From: a bacterium
Lineage (GTDB): Bacteria; UBA8248
Direction of reading: 5' to 3'
Length of the DNA stretch: 64,000 nt
NCBI GenBank assembly: GCA_022828125.1
Contig: JAJEJD010000015.1
Span: 55,240 to 119,239 of the forward strand
The notes under the pieces are model-generated. The model was given only the letters and a program-made list of their open reading frames with translations. It did no database searches and was not told the origin of the DNA. The translations under genes and the position numbers were made by a program. Below are positions 2,245-12,734 of this stretch, one piece after another; the stretch's first letter is position 1; each line of letters opens with the position of its first letter.

Positions 2245-3990
2245 CTACTTCGGCGGGATGACCGGCAAGAGCAGGTGGGAGGGGTGCTCGGGGCCGGTGT
2301 GGACCGTCACCTCGCCGCCGAACACCTCGGGCGGCCTGTCGGCAGGATCGTTGTGCCGGAACGGCCCCACGCCCGAGAAGACGGCGGGCATGTTGGGAAG
2401 CCCCTGGGTGACCCCGCCCGGGTAGACGTAGTCACAACCGCGCACGCTGAGCGCCAGGCGGTAGCCTTTGGGCGCCACGATGCAGGTCGGCCATATCTCG
2501 ACATCCAGCTCGTATATCTCGCCGGGCGTGAGCGGCTGTTTCTCATCGTGCGCGTGGTAGGGCCGGTAGGGCAGCGTGAGCGCCTCGTCCAGCTTCCGGT
2601 GCGAGGCCCGGAGCCAGCCCTGCGCCACCGGGGTGTGCGGGTCGAGCGCGCCCTGGAAGGTGACTTCCCTGAAATCGGGCGTGAACAATCTAAGAACCAG
2701 GAACAAATCGGCGTCCTGGGTCTCGGACGACACCCACAGCTTCGACGCCAGGGGGCCCGTGATCTCGGTTTCACGCTTCAGGGGAGGGGAGACGAACGTG
2801 ACGCCGTCGCTTAGACCTGCGTAGGCCGCCGAACTCGCCTCCTCCGGCGCGGCCTCGCCGAGCAGGTGGCCTTCCGAATGGAGATAGAGCTTCGTCCAGT
2901 TCGTGCGCGCGATGGGCCACTCGTTCTCCGCGCGCTCCACGAACTTCTCGCCGGGGTGGCGAATCTTAAGCTGCACCCTCGGCTGATCCTTCCAGCCCGT
3001 GTCCTCGCTCTTCAGGTAATGGCCGAAAAACTTCTTCTGGAGCGCGACGCCGTAATCGGTATAGAACTCCGTCCAGTGCTCGATGCCGTGGCTCTCCAGC
3101 CATTTTTCCTTGGAAGCCGCGCGCATAAAGGCCTCGCAGTTTCCCCTCGGGTGAAGCCCCTGCCCGCCCCAGTTGTTGGAAGAGAGAAAGGGAACCTCGA
3201 CTTTCGACCAGTCGGGCGTTTTCGCCTTCCAGTATTCATCGTCGAGCGGGTGCGCGCGCATCTCCGCCCCCAGAGGGCAGCGGTTCGCGCCCAGTTCCTC
3301 CTCGCTCAGCGTGTCCGGCCCCGAGACCCAGTCGCCCGTCACCCGGCTCTTGTAGCCGCGCTCGCCCAGGCCATGCTGTTTGGAGCGCCCCCTGTTCTGA
3401 TACCAGTTCTCCGTGAACGTGCAGTAGATGCCCCCGTGGTAGTTCATGTCGCGGTAGAAATCCGCCGCCCCCTCCCAGGCGCACATGGCGACGAGGTGCG
3501 GCGGCTTCAGGCAGGCGACCTGCCACTGGTTGATGGCGTAATAGGAGATGCCGTTGGCCCCCACCTTCCCGTTGCTCCAGGGCTGCGCGCCCGCCCATTC
3601 GATGCACTCGTAGAAATCGCGCGTCTCGCGCTCCGAGAAGGGGTCCATATAGCCTGGCGAGCGGCCAGCGCCTCTCGAATCCACTCGCACGCAGGCGTAG
3701 CCGTCCGGCACCCATTTCTCGGGGTCCACGACTTCCCAGTTCTGGTACTTGTTCGATGAACCCAAGGCGACGTCGGGGTGCTCTTCCACCATGCGGCGCC
3801 ATTGCTCAGGATAGCCGTCCTCGAAGTGGAGCCACTTCCCGTAAATCCCGTAGGTGATGATCACGGGGTAGCGGCCCTCATCAACAGGCCGGTAGACGTC
3901 GCAGCGCAGCACCAAGCCGTCGTCCATCTCGACAGGAACCTCCCAGTCGATCCGCATGCCGTCGGCGATTTCCGATTTACGCCCTCTCAT
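2245..3990 (-). CDS. CocE/NonD family hydrolase (peptidase S15)
   Basis: DSRGAGRSPG, WSNGKVG, GISY nucleophile elbow, C-terminal PepX domain. Confidence 0.93.
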   Translation of the reverse strand: MRGRKSEIADGMRIDWEVPVEMDDGLVLRCDVYRPVDEGRYPVIITYGIYGKWLHFEDGYPEQWRRMVEEHPDVALGSSNKYQNWEVVDPEKWVPDGYACVRVDSRGAGRSPGYMDPFSERETRDFYECIEWAGAQPWSNGKVGANGISYYAINQWQVACLKPPHLVAMCAWEGAADFYRDMNYHGGIYCTFTENWYQNRGRSKQHGLGERGYKSRVTGDWVSGPDTLSEEELGANRCPLGAEMRAHPLDDEYWKAKTPDWSKVEVPFLSSNNWGGQGLHPRGNCEAFMRAASKEKWLESHGIEHWTEFYTDYGVALQKKFFGHYLKSEDTGWKDQPRVQLKIRHPGEKFVERAENEWPIARTNWTKLYLHSEGHLLGEAAPEEASSAAYAGLSDGVTFVSPPLKRETEITGPLASKLWVSSETQDADLFLVLRLFTPDFREVTFQGALDPHTPVAQGWLRASHRKLDEALTLPYRPYHAHDEKQPLTPGEIYELDVEIWPTCIVAPKGYRLALSVRGCDYVYPGGVTQGLPNMPAVFSGVGPFRHNDPADRPPEVFGGEVTVHTGPEHPSHLLLPVIPPK

Positions 3991-4015: not shown

Positions 4016-5764
4016 TTATTCTTTCGGCGGTATCACCGGCAGCAGCACGTGGGACGGATGCGCCGGGCCGGTGTGCAGCGTCACCTTTCCGCCGAAGAGC
4101 TCCGTCGGCCTGTCCTCTTTGAGATCGTGCTTGAACGGCCCCACGCCGTAGTAGACGCGGCCCGATATTCTGGGCGCAGACGGCTCGTAGCCGGGCCAGA
4201 CGTAATCGCGCCCCCGGACGCTGATCGCCAGGCGGTATTCCTTGGGGATCACGATGGATGTCGGCCAGATTTCGACGTCCAGTTCATATATCTCGCCGGG
4301 CGTCAAAGGCTGAATCTCATCGTGCGTGTGGTAGGGCCGGTAGGGCAGCGTGAGGGCTTCATCCAGTTTCCGGTGCGAGGCCCTGAGCCACCCGATGGCG
4401 ACCGGCGTGTGCGGGTCGTTCGCACCCCGGTAGACGATCTCCGTCATGTCCGGCGTGAAGACGCGCAGGGTCAAGAAAAGGTCCGCGTCTTCCGTATCCG
4501 AGGAGACGAACAGCTTGGCCGCCACGGGGCCGGTGATCTCGGTTTCCTCGGCGAAGGGATGCGAGACGTAGACCAAGCCGTCGCCCAGGGCGTCATAGGT
4601 CTTCGTGCGCTCGTTGGTCTGGGGTTCCGCCCGGAAGGTGCCCGAACCCGAATGCAGGTAATACTTCGTCCACTGCGTTCGCGCGATGGGCCACTCGTTC
4701 TCAGCTCTCGGCACGAATTTCTCGCCCGGATGCCGCACCAGGAGCTGGACTTTCGGCTGCTCCTCCCAGCCCGTGTCCTCGCCCTTCAGGAAATGACCGA
4801 AAAATTTCTTCTGGAGCGCCACGCCGTAATCGGTATAAAACTCCGTGAAATGCTCCAGCCCGTGCATCTCCAGCCATTTCTGCTCGGTGGCCGATTGCAC
4901 GAAGCCCTCCGTGTTGCCCCTGGGGTGCAGGCCCACTCCGCCCCAGTTGCCCGAGGAAAGAAGAGGCACGTTGATCTTCGCGTAATCGGGCATGCGCTCT
5001 TTCCAGTAATCATCCACGAGGGGGTGATCCAGAATGTCCTGGCCGAAATCGCTCCGGTTGGATGCCAGTTCCTCTTCGCTCAGGTTGGCGGGGCCGGAAA
5101 TCCAGTCGCCGTTGATGCGGCTCTTGATGCCGCGGTTCCCCTTGCCGTGCTGGCGGGGAACGACGGCCTGGCGGTACCAGGTGTCCGAAAACCGGCAGGC
5201 GATGCCGCCGTGGTGGGCGAGGTCGCGGTAGAAATCGGCCGCTCCCTCCCAGACGCACATGGCCGCCAGGTGCGGCGGCTGGAGCGAGGCCACCTGCCAC
5301 TGGTTCATCCCGTAGTAGGAGATGCCGTTCAGCCCCACCTTGCCGTTGCTCCAGGGCTGCACGCCCGCCCACTCGATGCAGTCGTAAAAATCCCTGGTCT
5401 CGCGCGGCGACCACACCTCCAGATAGCCCGGCGAGCGGCCCGCGCCACGCGAATCCACGCGCACGCAGGCGTAGCCGTCGGGCACCCATTTCTCGGGGTC
5501 CACGAGCTCCCAGTTCTGGTATTTGTTGGTGGTGCCCATGACGGTCTCGGGATAGTCGTTCACCATGAGATTCCACTGGTGGGGATAGCCGTCCTGCAGA
5601 TGAAGCCACTTGCAGTAGGGGCCGTAACTCATGATGACGGGGTACCCGCCGTCCTCAATTGGCCGGTAGACGTCGCAGCGCAGCACGACGCCGTCGTCCA
5701 TCTCGATAGGAACGTCCCAGTCGACCCGCATCCCGTCTCTAACCTCGCTCTTGTACTCGCTCAT
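4016..5764 (-). CDS. CocE/NonD family hydrolase, tandem paralogue
   Basis: Same motifs; start set at MSEYKSEV by alignment to the paralogue and the upstream aaggcg RBS. Confidence 0.93.
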   Translation of the reverse strand: MSEYKSEVRDGMRVDWDVPIEMDDGVVLRCDVYRPIEDGGYPVIMSYGPYCKWLHLQDGYPHQWNLMVNDYPETVMGTTNKYQNWELVDPEKWVPDGYACVRVDSRGAGRSPGYLEVWSPRETRDFYDCIEWAGVQPWSNGKVGLNGISYYGMNQWQVASLQPPHLAAMCVWEGAADFYRDLAHHGGIACRFSDTWYRQAVVPRQHGKGNRGIKSRINGDWISGPANLSEEELASNRSDFGQDILDHPLVDDYWKERMPDYAKINVPLLSSGNWGGVGLHPRGNTEGFVQSATEQKWLEMHGLEHFTEFYTDYGVALQKKFFGHFLKGEDTGWEEQPKVQLLVRHPGEKFVPRAENEWPIARTQWTKYYLHSGSGTFRAEPQTNERTKTYDALGDGLVYVSHPFAEETEITGPVAAKLFVSSDTEDADLFLTLRVFTPDMTEIVYRGANDPHTPVAIGWLRASHRKLDEALTLPYRPYHTHDEIQPLTPGEIYELDVEIWPTSIVIPKEYRLAISVRGRDYVWPGYEPSAPRISGRVYYGVGPFKHDLKEDRPTELFGGKVTLHTGPAHPSHVLLPVIPPKE

Positions 5765-5845
5765 GTTTCGCCTTTCCGTGAAGAAGTGGATCACCGTCGG
5801 TGATGTATTTGGGGATGCGGGAAATATAACCGAGGGGACGGGGCT

Positions 5846-5950
5846 AGTCCAGATGGGTAAGGGTATTCGAAAAAGCAACCTTATCTCGAAAGGTGTTTCA
5901 AGGCTGCCGCAATTTCAGGAATGTGGACTGTAATTAGCAGGTGAAGGAGG
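5846..5950 (-). repeat. Cassette right-boundary motif R3
   Basis: Minus strand ...ccttcacctg...gtcca...ctgaaattgcggcagccttgaaacacctttcgagataagg...tttcgaat...catctggac; aligns with 7708-7812 and 8794-8900. Confidence 0.7.
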
Positions 5951-5983
5951 AGGTGAGAGTGAGAGACTGTACCAGGAAACTCC

Positions 5984-6265
5984 TCACTTCAAAGTATCGT
6001 CTTCAAATAGTTGAATGTAATCAGAACGATTTACACTGCAATCTACAATTTCTCGAAAAACTTTAGTCGACACTCCCAATTGCTTCGCCATGCGATTTTG
6101 CAAATAGTCATTGATGTCCTGGTTGTTGTGCGACATGAACGTCTCGCCAATTAACCTATCCTCATCAAATACTCGGTAATATATATGATGGCTATCTTCA
6201 TCAACTTCACATTTCAATTTATTGCGTAATGCTCTTCTGACTTCACGCGCTTTGTAGGTGGGCAT
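5984..6265 (-). CDS. HicA-like toxin
   Basis: 93 aa, DSHHIYY...MSH...DI...LQNRMAKQLGV pattern resembling the HicA dsRBD fold. Confidence 0.6.
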   Translation of the reverse strand: MPTYKAREVRRALRNKLKCEVDEDSHHIYYRVFDEDRLIGETFMSHNNQDINDYLQNRMAKQLGVSTKVFREIVDCSVNRSDYIQLFEDDTLK

Positions 6266-6275
6266 TCGGGGTGGA

Positions 6276-6638
6276 CTACCAATTTACAGTAACAACTTGA
6301 TGAAACAGAGCATCAAGGCGCAGCTTGCGTTTCTCCATATGCTTAGAGAGTTTTTTCGCAGAGTGAAGGGATTTCCATGATGCCTTCAGTGCTTGAAAGA
6401 GCGAAGCCATCGCTTCATCAGGAGTTGAACCTTCCCCATGATGCGGCAAATCCGGTTCCATCAACATATCGGCAAAATATCTTCCGTCTATTGCGTGTGT
6501 CTGAACAAAAGCCGGGATTTCTTCATAAGATTCTGCTGGTTGCTCAATAGGGGCGTAAGCAACTATCGAGGAACTCATTGAAGTATGCTCAACATCAGTT
6601 GTGGTGTTATTTACGGTATGAAGTAAAGTGGCGTTCAT
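6276..6638 (-). CDS. HicB-like antitoxin
   Basis: PDLPHHGEGSTPDEAMASL, HicB partial RNase H motif. Confidence 0.6.
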   Translation of the reverse strand: MNATLLHTVNNTTTDVEHTSMSSSIVAYAPIEQPAESYEEIPAFVQTHAIDGRYFADMLMEPDLPHHGEGSTPDEAMASLFQALKASWKSLHSAKKLSKHMEKRKLRLDALFHQVVTVNW

Positions 6639-6661
6639 TTCGTCGTACTCTCTCCTGGAAG

Positions 6662-6916
6662 TTATTCAGACTCCAGCACTGATATAATAGTGCCACTTCT
6701 CACATTGTAAATTGGATGCCCATCCAGCGCCCGCTCACCTTTGAATTTAGCAACTTCAACTACATCCACCCTAATTCGCAATATGGTTCCATCAGCAAGC
6801 TTGATTTTCATCGGTTTCTCAATAATCTCTTCGATTTCAACTATCTCTACATCATGCATTTCACCGGTTGTTGGATGTTTCATCTTTCGTTCTACCATAA
6901 CCAACCTTTTCTTCAT
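6662..6916 (-). CDS. Small beta-rich hypothetical protein (TA-associated)
   Basis: IKLADGTILRIRVDV...G.PIYNVRS; low GC; directly upstream of the hicBA-like pair. Confidence 0.65.
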   Translation of the reverse strand: MKKRLVMVERKMKHPTTGEMHDVEIVEIEEIIEKPMKIKLADGTILRIRVDVVEVAKFKGERALDGHPIYNVRSGTIISVLESE

Positions 6917-6989
6917 TTATATTGAAGTAGTGATTTCCCTATCCGTCGCCATGAGTGTGACTCCGTTCTCCGTATCGGAGTTGCAGGCG

Positions 6990-7070
6990 CCACTCACGAA
7001 CATACCCTATCTCATAGTGTGCAATGTTTCACCATATTCTGCCATACATTCCTGAAATTTCAATCGGCCT
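6990..7070 (-). repeat. Cassette left-boundary (promoter-like) motif L4
   Basis: Minus strand ttgaaatttcaggaatgtatggcagaatatggtgaaacattgcacactatgagatagggtatg; aligns with 9720-9800 and 8575-8655. Confidence 0.7.
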
Positions 7071-7111
7071 GGAACTCTGCTTCGCGCTCCCTGCGGGCAA
7101 CACGAGAAACG

Positions 7112-7462
7112 CTAAACCTCTGCGAATTTTTGCGGATCCACCCGGGGCAAGGGGACATCACAGGAGAAGATGTCCGGAAGGCTATGCGGGGATTTCGATT
7201 TCAGGTGCCGCTTCACGCTCTCGCGCTTCACGGATTCATAGAGCGCGTGATAGGAGGGCTCGGCGGGTACGAAAATTTCATCCAGGGTGTCGTGCTGCAC
7301 GGCGAACGATATCTGGGCCTCGACCGCTTCGGTCAGACTTTCCACCGCCTGATCTTGCGTTTCCCCATAGCCCCTGAGGCTCATATCCAGGGCAATCGCG
7401 CACCATTTCGCATCTTCCCGAACCACCAGAACGCGAAGAGTGTGGTTGAAATCCATGGGCGT
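7112..7462 (-). CDS. Orphan HicB-like antitoxin
   Basis: WCAIALDMSLRGYGETQDQAVESL, HicB-type motif; RBS aaggag upstream. Confidence 0.65.
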   Translation of the reverse strand, partial: TPMDFNHTLRVLVVREDAKWCAIALDMSLRGYGETQDQAVESLTEAVEAQISFAVQHDTLDEIFVPAEPSYHALYESVKRESVKRHLKSKSPHSLPDIFSCDVPLPRVDPQKFAEV

Positions 7463-7575
7463 GTGCACTCCTTTTGGTGTTCATCCGGGTGCCGAGATAG
7501 CCACGGCAAATTCAGGGACATAGCTTACATGGTTTTAAGAATGTTTGCATTCGACGCAATTTTCAATTCCCCCCA

Positions 7576-7711
7576 TCACTCGATTTTCTCCTCCAGCTTC
7601 CGCGTCGCCTCCTCGACGATTTCGCATACTTTGTCCATCACCTCGGGATGCGCGCGGAACGACTCGCGCACCTCCTTGACGATCGCCATCTTGGCGGCGG
7701 CGAAACCGGCC
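7576..7711 (-). repeat. 136-bp copy of the 3' end of the DUF3486-like gene (copy 3)
   Basis: Encodes AGFAAAKMAIVKEVRESFRAHPEVMDKVCEIVEEATRKLEEKIE*; 9 differences from 9812-9947 by manual count. Confidence 0.95.
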
Positions 7712-7812
7712 AGAGTGGGGTGACCGAAAAAATACTTTTATCTCGGAAGGTGTTTCAGAGCCGCCCAATCTCAGACGTTTGGACGGTTCTGCTCAGTTGA
7801 AGGCGTCGGTGG
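7708..7812 (-). repeat. Cassette right-boundary motif R2
   Basis: cgacgccttcaactgagcagaaccgtccaaacgtctgagattgggcggctctgaaacaccttccgagat, nearly identical to R1. Confidence 0.85.
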
Positions 7813-7851
7813 GGTTTGAAGGCAATAGGTTACCGGGACATATCTGGCAGC

Positions 7852-8262
7852 CTATGTCGTCAACTCGACGCTCCCGGTCAACCCGCTATAAGTCATCGTG
7901 AAATTTTCAAGAAAAGTCCTGCCGAGCAAGGCATGGTGGATTTGTCCTCCGCCAATCAAATCTACGGCGGCGAACCTGCCCAAAATGGTGCAATCCAAAG
8001 CGGGCACGTGAATATATGCGATGTGCATCGTCGTCCTGTGTCTACCCGACACCCCGGAAACTTCCACGCGGTCGACGACGGGCAGTTTCAAGTCGGATGC
8101 GACTTGCCGATCAATGCAACTCTCGGCCGCTCCCGTATCGACAAGGGCATGAAAACGCTTGCCGCTCGGGTCTTTGGGGTCGATACCTATTTCAACGGAG
8201 ATTGTCGGTCCGTACAGGGCCAGTTCCGAGGAAGTTTCAAAACCGCATTCAGCTTTTTGCAT
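7852..8262 (-). CDS. Clan AA (retropepsin-like) aspartyl protease
   Basis: ALVDTGA catalytic motif and LLGRTFL psi-loop. Confidence 0.88.
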   Translation of the reverse strand: MQKAECGFETSSELALYGPTISVEIGIDPKDPSGKRFHALVDTGAAESCIDRQVASDLKLPVVDRVEVSGVSGRHRTTMHIAYIHVPALDCTILGRFAAVDLIGGGQIHHALLGRTFLENFTMTYSGLTGSVELTT

Positions 8263-8500
8263 ATAAAGGCCTGTACATCACCGAAGCGGGGAGCCTCAGA
8301 GGCGGCGCTCCTACCTGCCTGATGAGATACGGCCCGCGATACCCGAATTTTTCAATGGCGTCGGTCGCCGCCTCATCGAAAGACTCATAGGAACCAACGA
8401 GCTTCTCGTCGTGAAAGACGACCCACTTGCCGAAATAATCGAGTTCGAGGTCATCTTTCATGGCCTCATACGTCTCGATTTGTTTTTTCAGGCCGCCCAT
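8249..8500 (-). CDS. DUF5678-like small protein
   Basis: YFGKWVVFHDEKLVGSYESFDEA...PYLIRQVG; overlaps the protease start; RBS aagga. Confidence 0.75.
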   Translation of the reverse strand: MGGLKKQIETYEAMKDDLELDYFGKWVVFHDEKLVGSYESFDEAATDAIEKFGYRGPYLIRQVGAPPLRLPASVMYRPLYAKS

Positions 8501-8574
8501 ATCTAATTCCTTCTCATCAAAGATAGATTGAAAACAATTATACTTTACTCTCTGGTTCACTTCGACCAGGGGAT

Positions 8575-8661
8575 TTACATCCCACAATTACACCCTGTCT
8601 TAGTAGGGAGAAACATTTTATCATACCTTGGCATAGAGTGCTGAAATCCTAACTGCCCCCA
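8575..8661 (-). repeat. Cassette left-boundary motif L2
   Basis: Minus strand gggggcagttaggatttcagcactctatgccaaggtatgat...aagacagggtgtaattgtg. Confidence 0.6.
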
Positions 8662-8797
8662 CTACTCCACCCGCTCCTCGAGCTTCCGCGTCGCCTCCTC
8701 GACGATTTCGCACACTTTGTCCATCACCTCGGGGTGCTCGCGGAACGACTCGCGCACTTCGGTGACGATCGCCATCTTGGCGGCGGCGAAGCCGTCC
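8662..8797 (-). repeat. 136-bp copy of the 3' end of the DUF3486-like gene (copy 2)
   Basis: Encodes DGFAAAKMAIVTEVRESFREHPEVMDKVCEIVEEATRKLEERVE*; 13 differences from 9812-9947 by manual count. Confidence 0.95.
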
Positions 8798-8900
8798 AAT
8801 GTGGGAGGATCGAAATAACACCCTGCTCTAGAAAGGCATTTCAAAGCCGCCACAATCTCAGACGATTGGACGGTTCTGCTCAGTTGAAGGCGTCGATGGA
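8794..8900 (-). repeat. Cassette right-boundary motif R1
   Basis: cgacgccttcaactgagcagaaccgtccaatcgtctgagattgtggcggctttgaaatgcctttctagag. Confidence 0.85.
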
Positions 8901-8957
8901 GGGGTTTAATGGGAAGCTAATCCGGGGGAAAATACCAACGACTTAAATTCACAACTG

Positions 8958-9212
8958 CTAATAAGCCTCGGGCAATTCATTTTTCGCACAGTCTTTGTCG
9001 ATATGCAGGTGACGTATCATCTTCCTGATATGGCCAATCTCGATCTCCGCCCGGCGTCCTCTTCCATGTTCTCCCTTCGGGAATGACGGATAGGTTCGAT
9101 CCCCATATCGGATGCAGAAGTGATGCGTGGTTTCCCTGATGTCACATCCAGGCGCGCACACTTCGAGCATATCCCAAATTTTCCTTAGTTGTACGCGTCC
9201 GCTCGAAGCCGT
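8958..9212 (-). CDS. HicA-like toxin (start probably ACG at 9212; first ATG at 9170)
   Basis: THHFCIRY...FPKGEH...EIEIGHIRKMIRHL; frame open up to the upstream stop codon. Confidence 0.55.
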   Translation of the reverse strand, partial: TASSGRVQLRKIWDMLEVCAPGCDIRETTHHFCIRYGDRTYPSFPKGEHGRGRRAEIEIGHIRKMIRHLHIDKDCAKNELPEAY

Positions 9213-9677
9213 TCAGGCGGCGATAGTTCTTAGTTCATCCAGCAGATTGTGCCGCGCCGTGGGTTTTTTCACCGTTCTAACCTGCACATAGGGCTGGTGC
9301 TCATCTGCGTTTTTCTTTTCCCGTCCTTCGGATTCGATATCTCCCCGGCGCACCGCCTCAACGGCTTCATCCCATTCCCGTTTCGTTTCTTCGCAAATCT
9401 CTTTGAAGAATGCCTCCACACGCTCTTTGAAGGTCGCGAAATCGACGGCTTCCTCCGCCATATCGAACAGGACGGACGTGTAGGTCCGTCGGAAAGCGGA
9501 GAAAGCCTTATCCTCATTTTCTCCGGTCGCAGCGATTCCCCCCGGCTGTACGCCGTACATCCATGTGGAATCATCCTCTTTCATCCCGAGGACCGTTCCC
9601 ATCATTCTTACGTCCGCCACGAAGCCGTTTCCTTCCACCTTGTCAGAGAAGGTGAAAAAGAAAGGAAACGCGCTCAT
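9213..9677 (-). CDS. HicB-like antitoxin
   Basis: WMYGVQPGGIAATGENEDKAFSAF motif; RBS aaaaggag. Confidence 0.55.
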   Translation of the reverse strand: MSAFPFFFTFSDKVEGNGFVADVRMMGTVLGMKEDDSTWMYGVQPGGIAATGENEDKAFSAFRRTYTSVLFDMAEEAVDFATFKERVEAFFKEICEETKREWDEAVEAVRRGDIESEGREKKNADEHQPYVQVRTVKKPTARHNLLDELRTIAA

Positions 9678-9719
9678 GTTCCACTCCTTTTCGGTTAGTG
9701 AATTGGTGCGAGAAATATC

Positions 9720-9811
9720 TCACAAAACCACACCCTATCTCACAATCTACAAAGTATCGCCATATCCTGCCATAGATCGCTGAAATCTCAACCCGCCTGA
9801 TCCGCCCCCCC
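9720..9811 (-). repeat. Cassette left-boundary motif L1
   Basis: Minus strand ttgagatttcagcgatctatggcaggatatggcgatactttgtagattgtgagatagggtgtgg. Confidence 0.75.
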
Positions 9812-10387
9812 TCACTCGATCCTCTCCTCCAGCTTCCGCGTCGCCTCCTCGACGATTTCGCACACCTTTTCCATCACCTCGGGATGCGCGCGGAACGATT
9901 CGCGCACTTCCTTGACGATCGCCATCTTGGCGGCGGCGAAGCCGTCCTGGTATTCGAGCTTGAGCTTTTCCGCCGATATGCGGCTGCGCTCCAGCCCGTT
10001 CACCATCTGCGCGAGTTTCTCGGGCGTCAGGTCCGCGAAGGATTCCTTCCCCATCTGGGAAACGGCCTCGACCGCCTGGGTCATCAGCATCCGCCGCGCG
10101 GCGGCGGCCACCTTCTCGCCCGGGTCCCTGCCCTCGCCGTCATAGGCCATGACTTCCTCGATCAGCTCATCCACCATGGCTTCCACCCGCTTGGTCTTGC
10201 GGATGCCTTCCAGCAGGCGGTTGTTGCGCCTGCCTATGGAGCAGAGCCCTATCTTCTCCCCGGTCTCCTTCTCGAAAGCCTCGGCCACCTCCTCGTAGGT
10301 CTTCCCCTCGGCGAGCATGGGGTCGACGACATTCTCGGCGCCGTATTCCACCACCTTCGACCTGCGCCCCCGCCTCCTCTCCATCAC
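9812..10387 (-). CDS. Mu-like phage gp27 / DUF3486 family protein (putative terminase small subunit)
   Basis: GRRSKV...TYEEVAEAF...GEKIGLCSIGR N-terminal HTH pattern; follows a gp26-like gene as in Mu-like phages. Confidence 0.7.
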   Translation of the reverse strand: MMERRRGRRSKVVEYGAENVVDPMLAEGKTYEEVAEAFEKETGEKIGLCSIGRRNNRLLEGIRKTKRVEAMVDELIEEVMAYDGEGRDPGEKVAAAARRMLMTQAVEAVSQMGKESFADLTPEKLAQMVNGLERSRISAEKLKLEYQDGFAAAKMAIVKEVRESFRAHPEVMEKVCEIVEEATRKLEERIE

Positions 10388-10716
10388 AATTCTCCCACGA
10401 GGATGTCGGGCGAAGCGGATACGGCGCCTTCGAGCAGACCGCGCCCCTTGCGGGTCAGGTGCGCCTCGTAGTCGGTCAGCAGGCGGCCGAAACCGCCCGG
10501 GGTGCGCTTTTCCAATAAACCCCGCCCTGCCAGATCGTCCACGAAGGCCTCGAGCGTCTCGCGGCCCAGGGGCGCGCCGTCCTCATGGTGGCCCGCCTCG
10601 CGCAGCGCGCTCCAAAGGAGAAGGCTGCCCACGCTCGATTCCGGGCGCAAGGCATCCTGGTAATACAGCGTCTTCAAAATGTCGCCGCGCAGGACGCGGG
10701 CCGTCAGTTCGTTCAC
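10384..10716 (-). CDS. Mu-like phage gp26-like winged-helix protein
   Basis: LRGDILKTL...AGH...LAGRGLL...AHLTRKGRGLLEG...PDI; 4-bp overlap with the next gene. Confidence 0.6.
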   Translation of the reverse strand: MNELTARVLRGDILKTLYYQDALRPESSVGSLLLWSALREAGHHEDGAPLGRETLEAFVDDLAGRGLLEKRTPGGFGRLLTDYEAHLTRKGRGLLEGAVSASPDILVGEL

Positions 10717-10975
10717 GATGAAACACCTCCTCGATGATTTTCATACCGGCGCGCCGGACGCCACCCGCCGATATCCAGGCTTCTTGCGCCCACTGAAAAT
10801 ACCTCCTCGATGACTTCCATTCCTGAATGCCGAACACCCCGCGCGCGGCGGGATTCAGCCAACATACAAGGCGGCGCGGGTTCGGGCGGCCCGGCAAATG
10901 CGGGGAAATGCGGGTGCGGGCGCGTTGAGAAAATAAATTCCGGGTTGCACAATGCCGCCCGAGGAGGAGGCTTCG

Positions 10976-11383
10976 ATGCGCTCAAGCGCGCGGAAAATCA
11001 TCACCACGCTCGCCGTATACGCACTCTGGTTCGCGTGGCTGCCCGACGCGCCTGCCCTCGCTCACGGGGAGGAGGAGATACTCCTGTTCGCCTATCTGGC
11101 GGAGGAGCGCAACCTGCTGAGAATCTCGACCGCCATCGTGGGCGGCATCATCCTGGCGATGGGCGCCTTCATCACCCAGCAATCGCGCGCCGAGGCGCGG
11201 GAGAGCGCCCGGGCCGAATTCACGGGCTTCAGGGTTATATTGCCGGGACTGCTCGTCACGAGCCTGGGCGTCATCGTGCTGTTCACGGCCGCCTTCATCC
11301 TGCCCGAGCAGATCAAGATCGTGCACGACCATCCCCTGGAGCACATCGAGACGAAAACGACGAAAAGCAAAAGCGGCCCGTGA
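10976..11383 (+). CDS. Hypothetical membrane protein
   Basis: Signal-like N-terminus, two hydrophobic segments, strong RBS gaggagg. Confidence 0.65.
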   Translation: MRSSARKIITTLAVYALWFAWLPDAPALAHGEEEILLFAYLAEERNLLRISTAIVGGIILAMGAFITQQSRAEARESARAEFTGFRVILPGLLVTSLGVIVLFTAAFILPEQIKIVHDHPLEHIETKTTKSKSGP

Positions 11384-11664
11384 GGGGTTGTTGGAAAGTC
11401 CCTGCGCACCCCCTCGAATGAAGGCCGTATGGGTCAGACATATATGTCTGACCCCGTGGCCGCCCTTGTCATCGGCTGGAAAACCAACCCCCCCTACCCC
11501 CCCTTGTCAGGGGGGCAAGAAAAATCAAAACCCTCCTCAGCCCGGCGGGGGCGCATCGCCTTTTTATACCCCCCTGTCAAGGGGGGGTAGGGGGGGTTGC
11601 CTTGATGAAGTTTCCCTTTCAAGGGGGTTGCCATTACCCTCCCAGGGGCTTTTTCAACAACCCC
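11384..11664. mobile_element. MITE-like element (shared terminal inverted repeats, C/G-tract palindromic core)
   Basis: ggggttgttggaaagtccc ... ggggctttttcaacaacccc; core aacccccctacccccccttgtcagggggg...cccccctgtcaagggggggtagggggggtt. Confidence 0.75.
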
Positions 11665-11689
11665 AAAGCCCTCCCCGCGCAAAACCCCC

Positions 11690-12115
11690 TCACTTCGCCT
11701 TTCCCGTGAGTTTCTCGACGGTGCGCAGCGCGCCCAGACCCAGCATCCCCAGGGTGAGTTCGAGAAGCCCGTCCACCGAGACGGGATAGGGCGCGAGTTC
11801 GCCGCTCATCAGCACCTGCCGCGTCCAGAGCCATGCGCCGAGCGCATACTGGGGAATAAAATAGAACGCCAGCGAGACGCCGCACGTCCACAGGATGAAC
11901 GGCCTGCCGCCCGCGACGAAGACGCTGCGGTGGGCCGCTTCGATTTTGTTGATCTCGTTCTGGGCTTCGGCGGGGCGCATCATCAGCTTTTGCTTTATCG
12001 CCTCCGCCGCGCGCCGCTCGTCCGGCGTCTCGACGAACCTGTCGATGACGTTGGCGACGCTCTCCGCCGCCGACACGACACCGCCGCCGATGAGCTTTTC
12101 CAAAAAGGCCATCAC
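11690..12115 (-). CDS. Phage holin (3TM-type)
   Basis: EINKIEAAHRSVFVAGGRPFILW...GMLGLGALRTVEK signature; directly downstream of the lysozyme. Confidence 0.85.
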   Translation of the reverse strand: MMAFLEKLIGGGVVSAAESVANVIDRFVETPDERRAAEAIKQKLMMRPAEAQNEINKIEAAHRSVFVAGGRPFILWTCGVSLAFYFIPQYALGAWLWTRQVLMSGELAPYPVSVDGLLELTLGMLGLGALRTVEKLTGKAK

Positions 12116-12525
12116 GCGCTCCTTATGCGCCCGGCCACCCTGCCCGCCCGGGCGGGGAGTTCCCGCGCGTAAACCGAATCGAGCGCCTCCCCGGCCGCCC
12201 GCTCGTAATCGCCCTTAGCGAGCGCGGCCCACATCTTCTGAAAGCCCAGAAGGCTCGGCACGCCCATGTTGTAGGCCATGTCGAGCAGAGCGCGCCTGGC
12301 ACCCGGCCTCAAATTCGCATACACCTCGCCGACGCGGGAGCGCTCCAGCTCTTCGGCCATCAGGATGAGCCGGTGGCGGAGGAGCATTTCTCCCTCCTCC
12401 TCTGTAATGCCGTCCTCGATCAGCGTTCCGTAACCGATGGTCTTCTTGCCCTTGGTATCCAGATAGACCCTGGCGACGAAACCCTCCTCGCGCTTGATCT
12501 CCTCTACGAGTTCGTCCGTGAGCAT
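12112..12525 (-). CDS. Phage lysozyme/endolysin (GH24-like)
   Basis: EEG...YLDTKGKKTIGYG catalytic E/D/T triad; DMAYNMG; FQKMWAAL. Confidence 0.88.
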   Translation of the reverse strand: MLTDELVEEIKREEGFVARVYLDTKGKKTIGYGTLIEDGITEEEGEMLLRHRLILMAEELERSRVGEVYANLRPGARRALLDMAYNMGVPSLLGFQKMWAALAKGDYERAAGEALDSVYARELPARAGRVAGRIRSA

Positions 12526-12734
12526 GATTTCTCCTCTTTCACGAGCGAATCCTCGGTTTTGGCCACCTGTTGCAGGACGCGACAAAGCGCCGCCGCTCCC
12601 TTGCGCGCGCCCCAGCGGTCCGCATAGGCCCGGCTCGAAGCCAGCACCCGTCCGTTCCTCGCCCGCACCCGGAAGCGATGCCGCCCGGATTTATCCCGGA
12701 ATATCTCGACGGGACGATATTTCGCGTTCCTCAT
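12504..12734 (-). CDS. YegP/DUF1508 family protein
   Basis: EIFRDKSGRHRFRVRARNGRVLASSRAY. Confidence 0.8.
   Translation of the reverse strand: MRNAKYRPVEIFRDKSGRHRFRVRARNGRVLASSRAYADRWGARKGAAALCRVLQQVAKTEDSLVKEEKSCSRTNS

Follow-up and report, generated by a model that had tools for sequence, protein, structure and literature searches.

Toxin-antitoxin-like modules interleaved with displaced ends of a Mu gp27-like gene: a tandem array probably built by C-terminal displacement

We analyzed a stretch of 64,000 nucleotides (nt), hereafter the window, from a sponge-associated bacterium of the UBA8248 lineage (NCBI GenBank assembly GCA_022828125.1, contig JAJEJD010000015.1, positions 55,240 to 119,239 of the forward strand), in which the 3' end of a gene for a relative of the Mu protein gp27 is present three times: once as the end of the intact gene and twice as displaced pieces, each followed by a different set of small open reading frames (ORFs; Table 1). 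The locus is a genus-wide hotspot of small, low-GC (guanine-plus-cytosine) toxin-antitoxin (TA)-like modules, bounded on one side by the gp27-like gene and on the other by the promoter of a cocE-type hydrolase gene. Judging from their sequences, the variation that the displaced ends carry arose in expressed genes. The array was probably built by C-terminal displacement in the manner of the Rhs and type VI secretion system (T6SS) loci, with illegitimate joins followed by frequent homologous exchange, and the process is best described as one of a known kind in a new setting.

The three 136-nt ends, or tails, align without insertions or deletions. An earlier note on this DNA had counted 13 and 9 differences in 136 bp, with zero indels, between the intact end and the two displaced ones, and our alignment confirms both counts; the displaced ends, which we term copy 8662 and copy 7576 after their coordinates, differ from each other at 16 positions. 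A repeat finder recovered this family of three (201-nt reference), whose members are spaced 1086 and 1150 nt apart, and the whole genome contains exactly three copies of the gene end. In copy 8662 seven of the changed bases are silent or belong to the stop codon (GAA/GAG, CAT/CAC, AAG/AAA, CTG/CTC, AGG/CGG, TGA/TAG), and the other six fall in four replacement codons (K>T, A>E, E>D, I>V). Copy 7576 shows five synonymous bases and four bases in three replacement codons (D>A, E>D, R>K), with the D>A change sitting 3 nt from the join to the preceding element. The note had also called the changes mostly synonymous or conservative: the synonymous changes that it listed are correct, but the list omits the non-conservative K>T and A>E of copy 8662 and D>A of copy 7576. 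The tails are conserved at 90-93% of their nucleotides, the encoded protein differs at 3-4 of 44 residues, and the longest perfect runs shared with the intact end measure 35 nt for copy 8662 and 40 nt for copy 7576.

The pattern of these differences points to a history under selection. Nei-Gojobori counts over 44 codons of the 45-codon ends gave ratios of replacement to synonymous substitution rates (dN/dS) well below 1: 0.21 for the intact end against copy 8662 (synonymous 6, replacement 5), 0.12 for the intact end against copy 7576 (6 and 3), and 0.21 for the two copies against each other (7.5 and 6.5). These values are close to those of 17 working ends of the genus (median 0.19, pooled 0.24), and the excess of synonymous changes over the ~22% expected under neutrality is significant in each comparison (binomial P of 0.0185, 0.0049 and 0.0047, in the same order). 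Moreover, 13 of the 13 variant bases of copy 8662 and 7 of the 9 of copy 7576 also occur in the working tails of 16 relatives. The two unshared bases of copy 7576 are the D>A base next to the join and the last base of an AAA lysine codon, a position at which lysine is common among full-length metagenome proteins. When the protein tails were compared with those of 76 proteins of at least 180 amino acids (aa), the intact tail had exact matches in two full-length homologues, the tail of copy 8662 lay within one residue of two, and that of copy 7576 lay within two residues of one, or within one residue if the residue at the join is set aside. The central claim of the earlier note, namely that the copies diverged as parts of an expressed gene, is thus borne out by the ratios, by the synonymous excess, by the sharing of 20 of the 22 variant bases and by the near-identical full-length tails.

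A different picture emerges for changes private to one sequence: five displaced fragments of four loci show 2 synonymous and 9 replacement changes, as against 22 and 14 in 18 working genes (Fisher P 0.017). Variation shaped by selection and overlain by a small number of neutral changes is the pattern predicted if once-working ends were displaced, with selection acting up to that event and being relaxed from then on. Some of the allele-like appearance of the displaced ends may stem from later import and not from the state at displacement. The private changes also speak for viewing the copies as plain decayed duplicates, i.e., gene ends copied in place that have drifted neutrally ever since; such changes are of the replacement type in the fragments of other lineages, one of which has an internal deletion, and the displaced copies are not needed for the protein, with copy 7576 having no start codon. 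However, the low dN/dS with its significant synonymous excess and the occurrence of most variant bases in working genes of other species do not fit neutral drift, nor does the count of private bases, which is zero in copy 8662 and two in copy 7576, and we consider simple decay very improbable.

The genome is a metagenome bin, and the sequencing runs that contain this DNA are catalogued as sponge metagenomes, so that an assembler might have stitched the versions of a single-module locus from several strains in tandem; short-read graphs do break within the tails. We compared the Logan contigs of four runs with positions 5400-10800 of the window. Run X2 stems from a second sample of the study to which the possible source belongs; its contigs that are identical to the window cover 5400-7616, 7675-8710, 8768-9852 and 9918-10800; they end only inside the conserved middle of the tails and cross both joins between a right-end element and a displaced tail, although the contig 8768-9852 has just 30 tail-side bases, one below the 31-letter bridging rule. 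Run X3 (contigs 7663-8654 and 8719-9841) and run X19 of another study (contig 7675-8703) also span a join. The adjacency of the right-end element D2D3 to a tail is absent from single-module genomes, so that neither repeat collapse nor an assembler could create it from them; it is crossed by independent contigs in X2, X3 and X19, and it is encoded in ORFs of 60-63 aa on at least six contigs of other assemblies. An assembly artefact therefore has a negligible chance of accounting for the array.

The joins themselves are legible at single-base resolution. In every locus the right end of the variable region reads CC(C/A)A(T/C)C(T/C)TGGAC, followed ~17 nt on by TATATT; this TGGAC/TATATT pair (window 5851..5823) is a putative promoter of the hydrolase gene, with TGGAC as its -35. 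At the two window joins the preceding right-end element runs up to ...TTGGAC or ...CTGGCC and is followed directly by the gene from its nt 442 (GGCTTC...). The intact gene reads ...CCAGGAC|GGCTTC at the same place, and both joins lie on a GGAC microhomology (gene nt 438-441), which is extended to GGACGGC in some promoter alleles. Relatives have joined elsewhere: in G011 and in the metagenome locus L055 the join is near gene nt 355-363 at a GACGCC microhomology, leaving fragments of ~214-222 nt, and in G012 it is near gene nt 187-197, leaving a fragment of ~72 + 226 nt with an internal deletion. Thus, the genus has three classes of join, all at microhomologies, and the fragment is always kept through its stop codon. 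Tyrosine recombinases (PF00589) have 16 matches in the genome and none on the contig that carries the window (serine recombinases were not searched genome-wide), and searches of the module ORFs with Pfam, NCBIfam and PHROG profiles recovered no recombinase domain. Variable join positions at microhomologies, together with a contig free of tyrosine recombinases, argue for illegitimate recombination rather than a site-specific system.

Integrase-borne islands that enter the 3' end of a gene or tRNA leave a displaced copy of the gene end, and tandem islands leave several. The window resembles such islands in that direct repeats of the 3' end bracket the inserted DNA and the gene stays intact, and differs from them in that no tyrosine recombinase is found on the contig, the repeats are longer and diverged, and there is no single crossover site. 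One might envisage a recombinase acting in trans, be it an island integrase or an integron-like enzyme, on an attachment site in or just after the gene end, with each element bringing its own copy of that end. Nearly all loci have sharp common borders (the stop codon and a G-run on one side, a C-run and CCATCTGGAC on the other) that form a short inverted repeat, both window joins lie at one position, and a contig of run X3 changes tail type inside a 6-nt G/C run, all of which would suit such an enzyme. Yet all 16 tyrosine recombinase matches are on other contigs, and the join position varies by lineage (gene nt 441, ~355-363 and ~187-197). The repeats are 90-93% alike over the whole 136 nt and show no distinct identical core with divergent sequence around it; elsewhere in the genome the modules are absent; and the repeat finder reported no inverted repeats at module borders. 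We hold site-specific insertion to be improbable.

Under the displacement scenario that we favor, the modules would mostly be moved by homologous recombination in the two conserved flanks. Occasionally an incoming piece, made up of a gene end, a module and the start of the hydrolase promoter region, would be added instead of exchanged: one of its sides would pair by homology within the gene, and the other would be attached within the resident gene by an illegitimate join at a microhomology. Alternatively, the piece might circularize at the microhomology and enter by a single crossover. Either way, the gene would remain intact and gain a new proximal module, behind which would come the old 3' end of the resident gene and the old module; two such additions would yield the three-unit array of the window. 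Thereafter the 136-nt tails and the ~95-nt right-end elements could serve as homology arms, allowing tails and modules to be exchanged or converted among the units of an array and among genomes. What we infer here is the donor DNA, the succession of events and the route, whether one-sided homology or a circle.

Several observations weigh against this scenario. Both window joins are at one position though the adjoining D3 sequences are only ~70% alike, which needs either two independent joins or one old join followed by exchange, and no donor, circle or excision product has been observed. Full-length homologues, in which the earlier note would look for the displaced tails, come within one or two residues of them, but an exact copy-8662 or copy-7576 tail was not found among the 76 full-length proteins compared. 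The TA nature of the modules, discussed below, is weakly founded, mostly on sub-threshold HicA, ParE-like and protein-atlas leads. Further, the tails group by genome or lineage and not by module. In a maximum-likelihood tree of 24 tails the three of the window fall in an unresolved polytomy with those of G016, G017, G022 and G008, the two tails of G011 are sisters (96/80), and the two of G012 lie within one clade, which suggests that the donors were close kin or that conversion homogenizes the copies. Finally, at least two comparisons show the linkage between tail and module to be broken right at the border that the stop codon and the G-run make up. The tail nearest to copy 7576 is the intact end of the window itself, and copy 7576 is 14 differences from the tail of G022, whose module 3a is 95% identical to that of the window from the first base after the G-run; and the X3 contig that leaves module 2 switches within the 6-nt G/C run to the end of an intact-type tail.

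Accordingly, the proposal of the earlier note that each module arrived with its own tail, and that tails would group by the module next to the gene, is weakly supported: the grouping by lineage and the identical modules behind different tails contradict it. Tail differences average 15.96 positions within a proximal-module type and 18.38 between types, a gap reached by 28 of 5000 label shuffles, and the gene body shows no such association (1708 of 5000 shuffles reach the gap); as related genomes are not independent, this is only a hint of short-range linkage. A contig of 171,416 nt holds a full-length gene (P0002), 11 residues from the window protein, whose tail has the T, E and D of copy 8662, and exact copies of the module-1 and module-2 proteins of the window are recorded on the same contig; this contig and another of 149,681 nt show the co-occurrence of proteins and not gene order. 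Tails and modules thus keep being exchanged or converted after displacement. Runs of 35-40 nt can support rare homologous crossovers in RecA-dependent recombination, and a crossover between tails could thereby remove 1,150 or 2,236 nt, place module 2 or module 3 beside the gene and change at most four residues. No gene body fused to a displaced tail was seen among the Logan contigs, which break inside the tails and can neither show nor exclude it.

Part of the same evidence can be accommodated by tandem duplication in place: a replication template switch or unequal crossover at GGAC would have duplicated, and later triplicated, everything between gene nt 441 and the hydrolase promoter. Afterwards the units would have received differing modules and tail alleles, from relatives through homologous recombination and from the intact copy through gene conversion. 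The displaced ends would then never have been working ends of this genome, and their working-allele variation would be borrowed. This would readily yield one join position in both window joins and tails that group by genome or lineage. In the same direction, L039 and L055, with 74 differences between their genes over 576 nt, have the G011-type join in common and distal modules that are not the same, indicating that modules were swapped behind an existing join, and the displaced-end ORFs at the first join (J12) occur in four mosaic variants drawn from the polymorphisms of the working pool. What sets it back is the sequence next to the joins: the D3 elements that abut the two joins are ~70% alike while D2 is 96% alike, and a donor without a join cannot replace D3 up to the join. 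It also takes more steps than additive import, and explains the selection signature only through later import, which C-terminal displacement allows as well. On balance tandem duplication appears rather unlikely to us, without being far-fetched.

C-terminal displacement by additive import has close parallels among known systems. At rhs loci, as described by Jackson et al. 2009 (PMC2935791), an intact gene is followed by direct-repeat 3' fragments of varying length with their own partners in a low-GC trough; the fragments are mostly silent and some are degenerating, and the model given there treats them as lateral alternatives that move by homologous recombination and circular intermediates. In keeping with that account of rhs C-terminal displacement, the window has an intact gene and direct-orientation 3' fragments (here two), as do G011, G012 and L055; each fragment has its own unrelated downstream partners, and fragment lengths vary between loci (PMC2935791). 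Unlike rhs, which by the same account exchanges a hypervariable toxin tip with its immunity gene, the tail here is the conserved, non-toxin end of a PF11985 protein, the payload lies behind the stop codon, and the anchor is a relative of phage small terminases (PMC2935791). In the effector-immunity arrays of the Vibrio cholerae T6SS, additive insertion is described to displace the resident module downstream without an integrase; homology-facilitated illegitimate recombination with a conserved upstream anchor is proposed, and homologous replacement is stated to be commoner than addition (Kirchberger et al. 2017, PMC5361080). The addition of a module that pushes the resident one downstream, the absence of an integrase and the conserved anchor are shared with our locus. 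In contrast, retention in those arrays is explained by selection on the immunity gene, whereas here TA-like genes are kept along with a displaced anchor piece that has no known use, and microhomology joins can be read directly here (PMC5361080). A third parallel is offered by compact TA-only islets without mobility genes that spread by recombination in flanking core genes (PMC13617665): flank-driven exchange is similar, and tandem arrays split by displaced ends of a flanking gene do not figure in the sections of that account drawn on here. With integron arrays, as characterized in PMC5361080, the locus shares a one-directional row of small, mostly promoter-poor modules, with the newest one proximal on the additive model; unlike integrons, its units are separated by gene-end copies. 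No PF00589 match (intI) is found on the contig, neither attI nor attC sites were seen, no border inverted repeats were reported and no Rfam match lies within 5600-10500, with no dedicated attC model having been run.

These comparisons extend displacement-type array building beyond the polymorphic toxin loci (rhs, contact-dependent inhibition (CDI) and T6SS) to an ordinary conserved flanking gene with TA-like cargo, and provide a concrete case of small accessory modules accumulating without a mobility gene, in which illegitimate joins can be followed to the base. They also indicate that leftover gene ends can record allele exchange and may still take part in it. At the first join a 63-aa ORF (8662-8853) has its GTG start inside the right-end element D3, and gene callers predict it on other assemblies too; the four variants of this displaced-end ORF recombine polymorphisms of the working gene (A/E, D/E, E/A, V/I). 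The mosaic tails of full-length genes and displaced-end ORFs hint at copying back into the working gene. One could go further and see in the locus an analogue of an integron, free of an integrase and kept growing by addiction: a resident TA module would kill cells in which it is replaced, additive joins would survive, and the gene ends and right-end elements would act as portable homology arms by which units are swapped, lost or copied back into the expressed gene. We offer this as a tentative idea with a smallish chance of being right. If it is, silent gene ends would feed variation into a working gene, as silent cassettes do in antigenic-variation loci, and the addictiveness of resident modules, by selecting against replacement, would explain the repeated independent formation of arrays at this locus.

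The anchor gene belongs to the PF11985 family (E 5.1e-8; 33.9 bits against a gathering cut-off of 28) and matches the PHROG profile phrog_426, 'terminase small subunit', with E 9.6e-11. Its likely start is an ATG one codon inside the predicted frame, which would give 190 aa as in its homologues (32 clusters, mostly of 190 aa). It is the only gp27-type gene of the whole genome (n = 1), a search of 22 further genomes of the genus found it in 20, with 67-96% protein identity, and its frame of 576 nt is intact in 18 of 18 close loci, across which the polymorphism-based ratio of replacement to synonymous changes (pN/pS) for the whole gene is 0.20 (153 pairs). Neither Terminase_6N nor TerL_ATPase, the domains searched for as a large terminase partner, has a match in the genome, which is 97% complete, and a search for the Mu portal was silent, as was its control. 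No large terminase gene adjoins the gp27-like gene, which is followed downstream by the modules and the hydrolase gene. The suggestion of the earlier note that the gene is still under selection without a large terminase is therefore upheld. It is an orphan within a small, conserved, phage-derived cluster, and purifying selection across the genus with no large terminase found in the genome points to domestication in function. In G023 (L053) the match to the gene is split into residues 1-58 and residues 54-191, which suggests a frameshift, and in G019 (L054) it is limited to residues 26-190; these two copies may be broken.

To place the array in its genus context we compared 20 loci of the genus and two metagenome loci, the only two that a metagenome scan yielded. 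Over the length that the contigs cover, 20 of these 22 loci keep the order lysozyme, holin, 110-aa ORF, gp27-like gene, variable region and hydrolase; of the two exceptions, one is a contig that ends first and the other a locus without the hydrolase. The variable region ranges from 587 to 3972 nt, with that of the window being the longest, and its GC fraction is 0.42-0.55 as against 0.62-0.67 outside. Counterparts of modules 1, 3a and 3b, 78-95% identical to them, are found in other species in different orders and combinations, with a homologue of module 1 in 10 other loci. DNA of module 2 was not found at the locus in 41 other genomes of the family, and weak partial matches lie elsewhere in G014 and G010. 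The stop codon and G-run on the left, and the C-run and right-border motif on the right, mark the borders in nearly all loci of the genus (window G-runs 9800-9811, 8655-8661 and 7569-7575; right border 5852-5870; the same places in L035-L056). Their short inverted repeat perhaps represents the stem of an old terminator whose loop took up modules.

Table 1. Coordinates of the features of the locus within the 64,000-nt window.
Feature	Coordinates	Strand	Remarks
Mu gp27-like gene (DUF3486, small-terminase-like)	10387..9812	minus	191 codons from GTG
Intact gene end (tail 1)	9812..9947	minus	136 nt including stop codon
Displaced gene end, copy 8662 (copy 2 of the earlier note)	8662..8797	minus	13 differences; inside 63-aa ORF 8853..8662
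Displaced gene end, copy 7576 (copy 3 of the earlier note)	7576..7711	minus	9 differences; no in-frame start codon
Module 1	8900..9811	minus	G-run, promoter-like D4 (9729-9799), 154-aa ORF (9677..9213), 70-aa ORF (9170..8958)
Right-end element D2D3 of module 1	8798..8899	minus	Homologous to the DNA immediately upstream of the cocE promoter; terminates at join J12 (8797|8798)
Module 2	7813..8661	minus	112-aa ORF (8587..8249), 136-aa clan AA aspartic protease (8262..7852)
Right-end element D2D3 of module 2	7712..7812	minus	Ends at join J23 (7711|7712)
Module 3a	7072..7575	minus	118-aa ORF (7468..7112); the HicA-like gene next to it in relatives is missing
Module 3b	5957..7071	minus	Second D4 (7001-7071); ORFs of 84 aa (6916..6662), 120 aa (6638..6276) and 93 aa, HicA-like (6265..5984)
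Native D2D3 and putative cocE promoter	5823..5956	minus	D2D3 5861-5956; TGGACT-17-TATATT 5851..5823; conserved right border of the variable region
CocE/NonD-type hydrolase gene	4016..5878	minus	Peptidase_S15 + PepX_C (E 6.3e-44, 4.8e-36); conserved right flank
Left flank	10384..12585	minus	110-aa ORF (10716..10384), holin of the gene transfer agent (GTA) type with three transmembrane segments (12115..11690), phage lysozyme (12585..12112)

No ORF family is common to modules 1, 2 and 3a/3b. The 93-aa ORF of module 3b matches PF07927 (HicA) with E 1.9e-4, under the cut-off, and phrog_353, 'toxin', with E 5.6e-5; PADLOC gave a single weak match (E 5.4e-4), to this ORF only. HicA matches in relatives are likewise all under the Pfam cut-off (E 2.7e-5, 3.6e-4 and 8.7e-4), the first value being that of the PF07927 match of the ORF that is partnered there with the homologue of module 3a. 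Modules of relatives also include a DUF1902 match above its cut-off and a family that is weakly ParE-like. For the 154-aa protein of module 1 a protein atlas returned weak HicB-like leads (0.77-0.79), and we treat the HicB-like reading as a lead. PDB sequence searches with the 154-, 70-, 118- and 112-aa ORFs gave nothing below E 0.1; single-sequence AlphaFold models were poor (mean predicted local distance difference test (pLDDT) values of 48.2 and 62.1), and Foldseek found no match at E <= 0.001 with the better of these poor models. As the HicA, ParE-like and atlas support is mostly sub-threshold, we term the modules TA-like. The protease of module 2 matches PF13975 (E 4.5e-8) and, in the only NCBIfam match among the module proteins, TIGR03698 (E 6.8e-8, under its cut-off). 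Module 3a lacks in the window the HicA-like gene that follows its homologue in five relatives (L035, L037-L040); D4 and module 3b occupy its place, so that the 118-aa putative antitoxin is orphaned.

A promoter-like element, TTGAAA-16-CAGAAT with an upstream TG, precedes otherwise unrelated module ORFs (9729-9799, 7001-7071 and, in part, 8622-8653), with the instance of module 3b at 7063..7036, and in relatives it is followed by a perfect palindrome, CACCCTAT-GAG-ATAGGGTG. This may represent a common operator of HicAB-like modules. A scan for promoters and terminators yielded 4 promoter-like sites against 3.7 expected, and we therefore weighted such sites only by their conservation across loci. 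A view of the modules as a mobile cassette family spread through the genome was rejected, for within the genome the modules, D4 and D2D3 are confined to this locus.

The matches of the left flank are to PF11351 (holin, E 3e-11) and PF00959 (lysozyme, E 8.1e-13), and beyond the lysozyme gene lie genes for a surface-antigen-like protein, a LysR regulator and glutamate synthase, indicating chromosomal flanks. On the other side, the hydrolase gene has a tandem paralogue (2245-3990) directly downstream with ~75% nt identity, and at least three further copies elsewhere in the genome (contigs C22 and C23). Finally, between the holin gene and the 110-aa ORF there is a 39-nt inverted repeat that is 90% complementary and C7/G7-rich (11485-11599); sub-threshold Rfam matches to mir-2008 on both strands at 11487-11597 were judged spurious, and the hairpin may be akin to repetitive extragenic palindromic (REP) elements.

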